From UHGV virus genome UHGV-2023596: a DNA stretch of 6,976 nt. The stretch is one strand, 5' to 3'. The DNA comes from a virus. Shown one piece after another: positions 3,435-3,669 of this stretch (position 1 is its first letter; the number at the start of each line of letters is the position of its first letter). Below the pieces are notes generated by a model that saw only the letters and a list, made by a program, of their open reading frames with translations, did not search any database and had not been told where the DNA came from. A program made the translations under genes and the position numbers.

Positions 3435-3530
3435 CAGTGCGTATAAGGTATATGCCGTTATGTTGAATCGGGTGCGGCGAAAATGGCGATCGCCGCGCCC
3501 GATTTACACATAACGCTCTTGTACGCACTG
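3435..3530 (+). other. Forked hairpin 1: candidate single-stranded attP for XerCD-mediated integration
   Basis: Base stem CAGTGCGTA (3435-3443) pairs with TACGCACTG (3522-3530). Asymmetric internal loop of 12 nt (3444-3455) against 6 nt (3516-3521). Second stem CGTTATGT (3456-3463) pairs with ACATAACG (3508-3515). Apical stem TCGGGTGCGGCG / CGCCGCGCCCGA has one mismatch. The left arm reads AGTGCGTATAA-(11 nt)-TTATGTTGAAT, dif-like. Confidence 0.65.
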
Positions 3531-3573
3531 CTTTTAACGGGGCATCTTTTTGTCTTATCGATAACTGCTATAA

Positions 3574-3669
3574 CAGTGCGCATAATGTGACACGCGTTAT
3601 GTTGAAAAGGCCGCTGCGATACTCTCCACCGCAGCGGCCTTTTTACACATAACGTCATTGTGCGCACTG
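3574..3669 (+). other. Forked hairpin 2: second candidate single-stranded attP, same architecture as hairpin 1
   Basis: Base stem CAGTGCGCA (3574-3582) pairs with TGCGCACTG (3661-3669). Internal loop 12 nt (3583-3594) against 6 nt (3655-3660). Stem CGTTATGT (3595-3602) pairs with ACATAACG (3647-3654). Perfect 10-bp apical stem GGCCGCTGCG (3609-3618) / CGCAGCGGCC (3630-3639) followed by TTTTT. Left arm reads GTGCGCATAA-(11 nt)-TTATGTTGAAA, close to the enterobacterial dif consensus. Confidence 0.65.

Follow-up and report, generated by a model that had tools for sequence, protein, structure and literature searches.

The window analysed here is a 6,976-nucleotide stretch of viral DNA (UHGV virus genome UHGV-2023596), whose proteins were assigned by Pfam as a G2P-family rolling-circle initiator, a single-stranded DNA (ssDNA)-binding protein, inovirus coat protein B, DUF2523, Zot, a secretin and an opposite-strand XRE repressor. 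Between the secretin gene on one side and the convergent repressor gene on the other lies an intergenic region with two forked hairpins, here called HP1 and HP2, built from arms that resemble dif, the dimer-resolution site essential to the host; this position corresponds to that of the attachment site (attP) region in CTXphi. An initial annotation of the window had put the hairpins forward as candidate CTXphi-type ssDNA attP sites for host XerCD in a phage without an integrase gene, and a Pfam scan of the ten main open reading frames (ORFs) of the window indeed found no integrase or recombinase domain. The parts of the two hairpins, and the genes around them, are as follows; numbers preceded by L are our handles for the genomes and contigs used in comparison.

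3435 to 3530, plus strand: HP1, a forked hairpin of CTX-type attP(+) architecture with a GG-type centre (repeat, fold and covariation)
3436 to 3446, plus strand: HP1 left XerC-like arm, AGTGCGTATAA, 9 of 11 positions identical to dif (dif comparison)
3447 to 3457, plus strand: HP1 left centre, GGTATATGCCG, with GG paired with the right arm, TATAT bulged and GC(C)G paired
3458 to 3468, plus strand: HP1 left XerD-like arm, TTATGTTGAAT, 10 of 11 positions identical to dif (alignment and dif comparison)
3469 to 3501, plus strand: HP1 GC-rich apical stem-loop, its loop variable among variants (including a 12-nt insertion) and its stem kept
3502 to 3529, minus strand: HP1 right arm, with right-arm centre GAGCG (site pattern search)
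3531 to 3573, plus strand: inter-hairpin spacer, 43 nt here and about 40–88 nt in relatives, poorly conserved
3574 to 3669, plus strand: HP2, a working attP(+) hairpin for canonical dif (fold, and prophage junctions in L001, L002, L003, L005, L007, L021 and L022)
3575 to 3588, plus strand: HP2 left XerC-like arm, AGTGCGCATAA, plus TGT (attL and attR junctions)
3586 to 3596, plus strand: HP2 left centre, TGTGACACGCG, with TG paired, TGACAC bulged and GCG paired in the fold
3597 to 3607, plus strand: HP2 left XerD-like arm, TTATGTTGAAA (alignment and dif comparison)
3608 to 3640, plus strand: HP2 apical stem-loop, AAGGCCGCTGCG...CGCAGCGGCCTT, with runs of A and T on its flanks (fold)
3641 to 3668, minus strand: HP2 right arm, reading AGTGCGCACAA-TGACG-TTATGTGTAAAA on the (−) strand (site pattern search)
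852 to 1910, plus strand: Zot/pI-like assembly ATPase (Pfam Zot, 1.2e-23)
1907 to 3166, plus strand: secretin (pIV-like), final gene of the morphogenesis operon, upstream of the hairpins (Pfam Secretin, 1.8e-25)
3919 to 4245, minus strand: XRE-family repressor in an RstR-like position, convergent on the hairpins (Pfam HTH_3, 1.8e-17)
4341 to 5477, plus strand: rolling-circle replication initiator of the G2P family (Pfam G2P_X_C, 6.8e-19)
5435 to 5848, plus strand: ssDNA-binding protein, pV-like (Pfam Phage_DNA_bind, 4.4e-11)

HP1 and HP2 are direct copies of 96 nucleotides (nt), 72% identical and 139 nt apart start to start, and each is in itself an inverted repeat; a repeat search returned exactly the coordinates at which two units of ~96 nt had initially been annotated. 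Folded as ssDNA, HP1 reached −34.9 kcal/mol (z −9.4) and HP2 −38.4 kcal/mol (z −10.6), against a mean of about −14 kcal/mol for 200 dinucleotide shuffles, none of which equalled either hairpin. Both forked hairpins were recovered alone and in a fold of their 301-nt context, where they form side by side and independently. This part of the initial fold sketch stood, but its 9-bp base stem and 12/6 internal loop did not: the minimum-energy base stem has 14 bp (it takes in the 11-bp XerC arm, where one pair is a T.G wobble, and nucleotides 1 and 2 of the centre), with a one-sided bulge of 5–6 nt above it on the 5′ side, and above this a continuous stem is made up of three pairs from the centre, the XerD arm, which has a G.T wobble and a bulged C, and the GC-rich apical stem. 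The fold is more stable on the (+) strand than on the (−) strand (HP1, −34.9 versus −30.2 kcal/mol; HP2, −38.4 versus −35.2 kcal/mol), because the conserved G.T wobbles turn into A.C mismatches on the latter.

Compared with the dif of Escherichia coli, GGTGCGCATAA-TGTATA-TTATGTTAAAT (PMC2731167; confirmed in K-12), the XerC arms of the hairpins were identical at 8–10 of 11 positions and the XerD arms at 9–11 of 11, which bears out the initial likening of the base stem to the XerC arm and of the second stem to the XerD arm. The pattern GTGCGYAYAA-N5-11-TTATGT occurs four times in the window, always in the arms of HP1 and HP2 (0.00 expected from 200 shuffles), and the four dif-like sites form two inverted pairs. 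The right arms hold an exact or near-exact dif XerD arm split by one extra base, the C that is bulged in the fold. Read as duplex, the centres are 11 nt long in the left arms and 5 nt in the right arms; these lengths are wrong for dif, so the sites would be masked as double-stranded DNA.

An alignment of 12 hairpins showed compensatory changes in 13 of 38 pairs, including both XerC-proximal centre pairs (TG:CA in HP2, GA:TC in HP1). Alignment columns 24–33, in the XerD arm, were invariant in all 12, and the XerD-arm stem, wobble and bulge included, is unchanged even in Xenorhabdus. It is the dif-like arms that are conserved between HP1 and HP2, while their apical stems and loops share almost nothing. 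No Rfam family matched the hairpins, and a terminator scan did not flag them because it takes loops of 3–8 nt only.

Prophages with 92–97% identity to the window sit at E. coli dif. Over 93% of the window length, identity to a tandem prophage of E. coli S21EC is 93.8%, and the morphogenesis half of the window is ~92% identical to prophages of many other E. coli genomes, which sit between hipA and the yde fimbrial genes, that is, at the dif locus. Among deposited phage genomes, megablast with the whole window and blastn with the hairpin region gave no match.

A scripted census of prophage–chromosome junctions in these relatives, not in the window itself, covered several different elements and gave six left and eight right ends, with the crossover in the left arm of the HP2 homologue at the border of XerC arm and centre. 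At the left ends (attL; L002, L003, L005, L007, L021 and L022), the dif XerC arm GGTGCGCATAA is joined to the HP2-homologue centre TGTGACACGCG and the rest of the hairpin, and the array reads GGTGCGCATAA/TGTGACACGCGTTATGTTGAAAAGGCC... At the right ends (attR; L001, L003, L006, L013, L020, L022, L024 and L025), the phage XerC arm AGTGCGCATAA is followed by TGTATA and TTATGTTAAAT, so that the array reads ...ACAGTGCGCATAA/TGTATA/TTATGTTAAAT. Junctions between tandem copies retain an intact hairpin, and all prophages at dif lie in one orientation. The stretch shared with dif, GTGCGCATAATGT (3576–3588), holds both the crossover and the XerC cleavage position, which by analogy with CTXphi would fall between 3585 and 3586; that XerC is the catalyst at HP2 is likewise suggested by CTXphi. 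The start of the HP2 centre, TG(T), matches the TGTATA of dif, and the right-arm centre of HP2 is TG(A/G)CG. Thus the proposal of a CTXphi-type ssDNA attP for host XerCD in an integrase-less phage holds, backed for HP2 by the attL and attR junctions of relatives at E. coli dif. HP2 is a CTXphi/CUS-1/Ypf-type attP(+) hairpin, a kind already known.

Two variations on this exchange were considered and rejected. Cleavage of the hairpin right arm by XerD would invert the prophage relative to dif, yet all prophages share one orientation, and a second strand exchange on the hairpin would linearise the chromosome (likewise PMC3442271). HP2-type hairpins were present in 100 of 5,426 complete E. coli genomes; 7 of the 228 copies in these genomes were on plasmid records and might represent replicative forms or insertions at the Xer sites of plasmids. 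One array (L026, strain Z1323CEC0015) differs between its attL (position 711, centre TGTAACATGCG) and its tandem junction (position 9043, centre TGTGACATGCG). Nucleotide 4 of this attL centre is dif-like, which strict exchange at the arm/centre border does not predict; the difference could be a polymorphism or a repaired heteroduplex.

Among the nearest systems compared is CTXphi of Vibrio cholerae: its attP(+) consists of inverted dif-like sites with centres of 12 and 7 nt that fold in the (+) ssDNA, where XerC exchanges one strand and replication resolves the product (Val et al. 2005; reviewed in PMC3089051 and PMC3442271). The window shares with it two inverted dif-like sites with unequal, over-long centres (12/7 versus 11/5 nt), a (+) ssDNA stem with XerC and XerD arms, the lack of an integrase, and a site between the last structural or accessory gene and the repressor; the HP2-bearing relatives further share the crossover at the XerC arm/centre border, an attR that regenerates dif, and tandem arrays. 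Unlike in CTXphi, the arms and the host dif are enterobacterial, the hairpin is of ~96 nt rather than ~150 nt, and there are two complete tandem hairpins with different centres instead of one.

A single hairpin of this kind is less new than the initial annotation implied, since CUS-1phi (E. coli O18:K1:H7) and Ypfphi (Yersinia pestis) have already been placed among the CTX-type IMEXs (mobile elements that integrate by making use of Xer), with one predicted inverted XerC/XerD pair (PMC4246890, PMC4266046; also PMC3089051). Compared by their published descriptions, they are enterobacterial inoviruses in tandem at dif with an inverted XerC/XerD pair, as here, but with one such pair where the window has two. 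The replication module of the window also differs from that of most E. coli relatives.

HP1 was found in about 13 E. coli genomes, three IMG/VR contigs (L009, L012 and L013) and three metagenome contigs (L029, L030 and L031), upstream of HP2 in every case found. Four different backbones carry it: that of the window-type phage, that of an 8.4-kb phage (EC12) whose replication endonuclease is of 2 kb, that of the L020–L022 type, and that of 3.66-kb Rep+SSB satellites, of which as many as seven copies stand in tandem. HP1 was recovered in five distinct variants, with invariant dif-like arms and variable loops and spacers, and a C:G to T:A change in the base stem is compensatory: the T at 3442 in the left arm covaries with an A in the right arm, where other HP1 variants have C:G. 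Because the arms are invariant while the loops differ and the base-stem change is compensated, these patterns argue that HP1 is maintained as a Xer-type hairpin rather than being a decaying duplicate.

Several of the HP1-bearing elements are of interest in themselves. The 3.66-kb satellite-like element at E. coli dif (L004/L005, E. coli cM8a; L006; L023) encodes a G2P Rep, an SSB (ssDNA-binding protein), an 87-aa protein and a 201-aa double-helix-turn-helix protein, with no morphogenesis genes, and looks like an E. coli counterpart of RS1/TLC. In L009 and L012, ~97% homology to the window stops either immediately past HP2 (3669) or at the repressor (3920), beyond which lies another replication module. 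It seems that the attachment hairpin is where modules are shuffled, which would be expected if mixed tandem arrays roll out hybrid genomes. One phage type (L021, 13547–14251; L024, 291–902) has an internal duplication of ~460 bp, so that each unit has HP1a (its right arm degenerate), HP1b and HP2, three hairpins in all.

A scan of genome contigs for the HP1 centre gave five chance matches in unrelated bacteria and one useful locus, in Xenorhabdus griffiniae (L019, 1561–2830). There, two CTX-type hairpins with Xenorhabdus-type arms (GGTTCGCATAA) form the boundaries of a 1.1-kb element that has two small ORFs in reverse orientation and lies directly upstream of a complete inovirus; it is a mini-IMEX and possibly a model for the origin of dual-hairpin modules. 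Recent XerC-mediated insertion of a mini-IMEX was rejected as a simple history of the HP1 unit: it predicts swapped XerC arms, but the HP1 left arm covaries with its own right arm.

The centre of HP1 sets it apart from HP2. Its first six nucleotides in the window, GGTATA, match the TGTATA of dif at five of six positions; the centre starts with GG in the window and with GA or GAC in other variants, so that it is mismatched to dif at nucleotide 1. Integration specificity in CTXphi is set solely by Watson–Crick or wobble pairing beside the XerC cleavage site (PMC3089051), and one mismatch there strongly lowers strand exchange (PMC3442271). HP1, mismatched at just this specificity position, should therefore be a poor partner of canonical dif. 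In keeping with this, in EC12, JNE112863, JNE25-001, ESC818, UTAK-3 and JNE23-001 the prophage ends at the HP2 XerC arm with HP1 intact just inside. HP1 with a TGT-type centre (TGTATAT) was absent from E. coli genomes and IMG/VR, as was any reciprocal or hybrid product. In X. griffiniae, an HP1-like hairpin whose centre does start with TGT stands behind a host-type XerC arm at an attL-like junction, which suggests that the HP1 lineage can serve as attP.

HP1-type centres were found in the chromosomal dif itself, at the right ends of four arrays. These variant sites, which we call dif*, read AGTGCGTATAA-GATATA-TTATGTTAAAT in E. coli cM8a (L004) and 700481 (L023), AGTGCGCATAA-GACATA-TTATGTTAAAT in 16F5M1D1 (L007) and AGTGCGTATAA-GGTATA-TTATGTTAAAT in an IMG/VR contig (L028). 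Each dif* centre is identical to nucleotides 1–6 of the centre in a known HP1 variant, and HP1 is matched to these centres where it is mismatched to TGTATA; in the three E. coli cases the matching variant is in the same array, and the GGTATA of L028 matches the window-type HP1. The upstream flank was the pre-HP1 flank in all four. In UTAK-3 and JNE23-001 (L024 and L025), the phage and the chromosomal flank are as in 16F5M1D1, but the order there is HP1b, spacer, HP2 XerC arm, TGTATA and the rest of dif, and this precursor differs from the 16F5M1D1 product by a single clean deletion of 147 bp.

The position of these crossovers points to the XerD side. In 16F5M1D1 the crossover fell within a 4-nt ATAT that spans the XerD cleavage position, leaving unused a 12-nt identical block (the XerC arm) immediately upstream, which favours XerD-side site-specific exchange over slippage. 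In the L028 recombinant of HP1 and dif it lay within the equivalent of window positions 3448–3453, and in all four dif* products it was confined to the (G)(T)ATAT block over the XerD cleavage position. CTX-type exchange by XerC only cannot yield dif*, because the target centre then stays at attR. When the duplex left arm of HP1 was read with a 6-bp centre, that centre matched dif at 3–5 of 6 positions, with the identity always on the XerD side, in all variants. The pseudo-XerD arm of this reading, TGCCGTTATGT, matches the dif XerD arm at 6 of 11 positions and retains T1 and G5, two positions critical for activator-driven XerD-first recombination at imperfect sites (PMC9226527, PMC6744903); the HP2 equivalent has A1. 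Exact GATATA-type ends were seen in only two genomes, both satellite-bearing. Among the 5,426 genomes no dif* was seen at an empty site, in a search with a GATATA query on one chromosomal flank whose best full-length matches were at 97%.

One further site with an HP1-type centre lies on a 155-kb IMG/VR contig (L027, 260–400), which reads GGTGCGCATAA-GACATA-TTATGTTAAAT and carries a second, degenerate dif-like site, both adjoining tandem DnaA-box-like repeats (TGTGGATAA). This locus may serve in the resolution of a plasmid or phage-plasmid, and it could conceivably be a further HP1 target. A search of plasmid Xer sites for HP1-type centres was non-discriminating, returning 2,236 generic dif-like sites at 87–90% identity.

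Pairing of this sort has a precedent in V. cholerae, where CTXphi-G, with attP centres that start GG, targets difG (centre GGTATA) and CTXphi-ET (TG...) targets dif1 (Das et al. 2010, reviewed in PMC3089051). As there, the XerC-proximal part of the centre sets the pairing: GG-type goes with GGTATA and TG-type with TGTAT(G/A), and HP1 with dif* and HP2 with dif show the same correspondence, down to an identical GGTATA. In V. cholerae, each key belongs to a different phage variant, with natural dif alleles as the locks; here a single genome holds both keys, and dif* was found only beside HP1-bearing prophages. The XerD-side features recall instead the attP of TLCphi and gonococcal difGGI, duplex dif-like sites with a degenerate XerD arm that use the D pathway (PMC6744903, PMC9226527, PMC5357621). 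Read with a 6-bp centre, the HP1 duplex left arm would likewise have a good XerC arm, a centre that is dif-like on the XerD side and a poor XerD arm that keeps T1 and G5, and the recombinants cross over on the XerD side. Unlike those systems, HP1 came without a detected XafT/DUF3653, its centre has 3–5 of 6 positions in common with dif, no TLC-type attL was seen, and the events are deletions beside dif, not integrations.

Taken together, we consider it probable, though by no means certain, that XerCD takes both hairpins as substrates, their architecture being of CTX type and their centre specificities different, with HP2 the one that integrates at canonical dif; for HP1, a role in Xer recombination is suggested by sequence comparison. 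In the packaged (+) ssDNA, each unit would fold so that its dif-like XerC and XerD arms become duplex around a partly bulged centre. At HP2, XerC would exchange a strand at the arm/centre border (3585/3586) and replication would fix the prophage, with attR regenerating dif and tandem arrays restoring the hairpin at their junctions. HP1, with its mismatched centre, would not be used against TGTATA, and the same difference may also keep HP1 and HP2 from recombining with each other. By this reading, the duplex left arm of HP1 has recombined in nature with the adjacent attR-dif on the XerD side, deleting about 150–200 bp and leaving dif* with the HP1 centre; the four products are as described, and a XerD-first pathway to them is what we infer. 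The resulting dif* is mismatched to HP2 and matched to HP1 at the position that sets specificity, giving two keys for two locks, and HP1 might then be used for integration.

In its fullest form, this becomes a phage that changes the lock: HP2 would enter canonical dif, the HP1 left arm would rewrite the centre to dif*, competitors with HP2 only would be excluded, and HP1 would then serve the later integrations of the phage. We offer this extension tentatively and think it considerably less likely than not to be right in full. Of the two copies put forward initially as possible alternative attP sites, HP2 is borne out by its junctions; HP1 so far is not, every attL examined having been made through HP2, although an alternative attP is the best reading of it.

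Several observations weigh against a function for HP1 in integration or in rewriting dif. HP1-made attL was not found in the E. coli arrays examined, where six of six left ends were HP2-type, and a chromosomal-type (GG-type) XerC arm fused to an HP1 centre had 0 matches in JGI metagenomes (the form expected of an HP1-type attL being the host XerC arm plus G(G/A)(T/C)ATATGCCG). HP1 is dispensable: ~87 of the 100 HP2-type E. coli genomes are without it, the closest full-length relative (L001) included. The variants are only five and related, so the covariation within HP1 rests on few events. The dif* census is small (four cases) and biased in ascertainment, as XerC-arm crossovers look like ordinary HP2-type ends. 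Because dif* events delete HP1, they could be accidents rather than function. Neither the ORFs of the window nor those of satellites and phages in dif*-bearing arrays gave a XafT/DUF3653 match, so the activator would be FtsK or an unrecognised factor.

To one alternative explanation we give a minor but real share of the probability, namely that HP2 is the attP(+) and HP1 a functionless passenger, the scar of a tiny co-integrated IMEX or an attP duplicated from a heterogeneous array, with dif* arising by accidental Xer or slippage deletions. HP1 would then survive only through a centre incompatible with HP2 and dif. The HP1 unit does behave as an indel bounded by XerC arms, the flanks of the single-hairpin L001 and L026 being homologous to the pre-HP1 flank of the window; the Xenorhabdus mini-element between two hairpins is a plausible precursor state; most relatives are without HP1; no HP1-made attL was found; and module shuffling at HP2 is evident. 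A passenger would not, however, be expected to keep its arms invariant while loop and spacer diverge, with a compensated change in the base stem; simple capture by XerC exchange predicts swapped XerC arms, hence a mismatched HP1 stem, and this is absent. The HP1 module also persists in four different backbones, and all three of its centre variants retain XerD-side identity to dif.

A role of the hairpins mainly in single-strand replication or assembly (as minus-strand origin or packaging signal, like those of Ff phages) or in the termination of transcription, with the dif-likeness of HP1 inherited and not used, strikes us as unlikely. Their place in the main intergenic region between convergent operons and their GC-rich apical stems with flanking A and T runs would suit such signals, the HP2 apical stem-loop being plausibly a bidirectional terminator between secretin and repressor, and integrative Xanthomonas inoviruses have short GC-rich hairpins as packaging signals (10.1101/2023.12.30.573655). 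Those signals, however, adjoin the origin inside gII, not attP (10.1101/2023.12.30.573655). The HP2 arms are directly seen as the crossover site, and what HP1 and HP2 share is the conserved dif-like arms, not the apical stems or loops, so that the initial suggestion of one hairpin as only a replication or packaging signal leaves the arms of HP1 unexplained. The terminator scan found no hairpin match, though its loop limit excludes them, and roles of this sort could be additional rather than alternative. Integration through the duplex replicative form is more improbable still. It would make the HP2 left arm an ordinary double-stranded attP, as in VGJphi, whose attP is a single 29-bp site (PMC4246890), and the hairpins incidental; the attL and attR junctions by themselves would fit a single- or double-stranded substrate. 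However, the left-arm centres have 11 bp and the right-arm centres 5 bp with a disrupted XerD arm, against the 6-bp centre of dif (PMC3089051), and all four window sites have such 5-nt or 11-nt centres in inverted pairs, unlike VGJphi-type sites. The inverted partner arms, the covariation and the wobbles specific to the (+) strand would have no role in a duplex site, and the architecture parallels CTXphi attP1/attP2 with its 12-nt and 7-nt centres. Two XerCD hairpins of different centre specificity thus remain our preferred reading.

As to the source of the DNA, joining the end of the window to its start gave a single unbroken pIII-like ORF, in which there are a signal peptide and a (Gly-Thr)n linker. 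It follows that the window is either a ~7-kb inovirus in circularly permuted form or a single unit from a tandem array. The best explanation is that it represents one unit of a filamentous phage that has no integrase and belongs to the CUS-1/Ypf group. Both ends (1–170 and 6960–6976) lie inside the (Gly-Thr)n repeat linker of the pIII-like gene, and the assembly probably broke in, or collapsed across, this repeat, leaving its true length uncertain. Just downstream of HP2 (window 3690–3810; also L001 6130–6240 and L004 9560–9680) is a GC-rich block with the direct repeats ACGCCAGC and GAGGACGG, each present twice. The block is conserved across elements with different Rep modules, satellites included, and is a candidate origin, packaging or regulatory element.

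The cholera toxin phage is the best-known case of ssDNA attachment hairpins by which XerCD is hijacked, and to our knowledge such hairpins outside Vibrio had only been predicted. By comparison of genomes, the junction census adds evidence for use of the CTXphi-type ssDNA attP route by E. coli inoviruses and by their satellites. In open-access papers and preprints we found no description of tandem attP(+) hairpins or of a rewritten dif centre in E. coli, and HP1 appears to be undescribed. HP1 raises the question of whether one genome can carry two attachment specificities, and dif* that of whether a mobile element rewrites the centre of the host's essential dimer-resolution site and whether such rewriting governs which elements join the array at dif. 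With their satellites, hybrid modules and dif variants, these arrays offer a tractable E. coli counterpart of the CTX/RS1/TLC interplay of V. cholerae.

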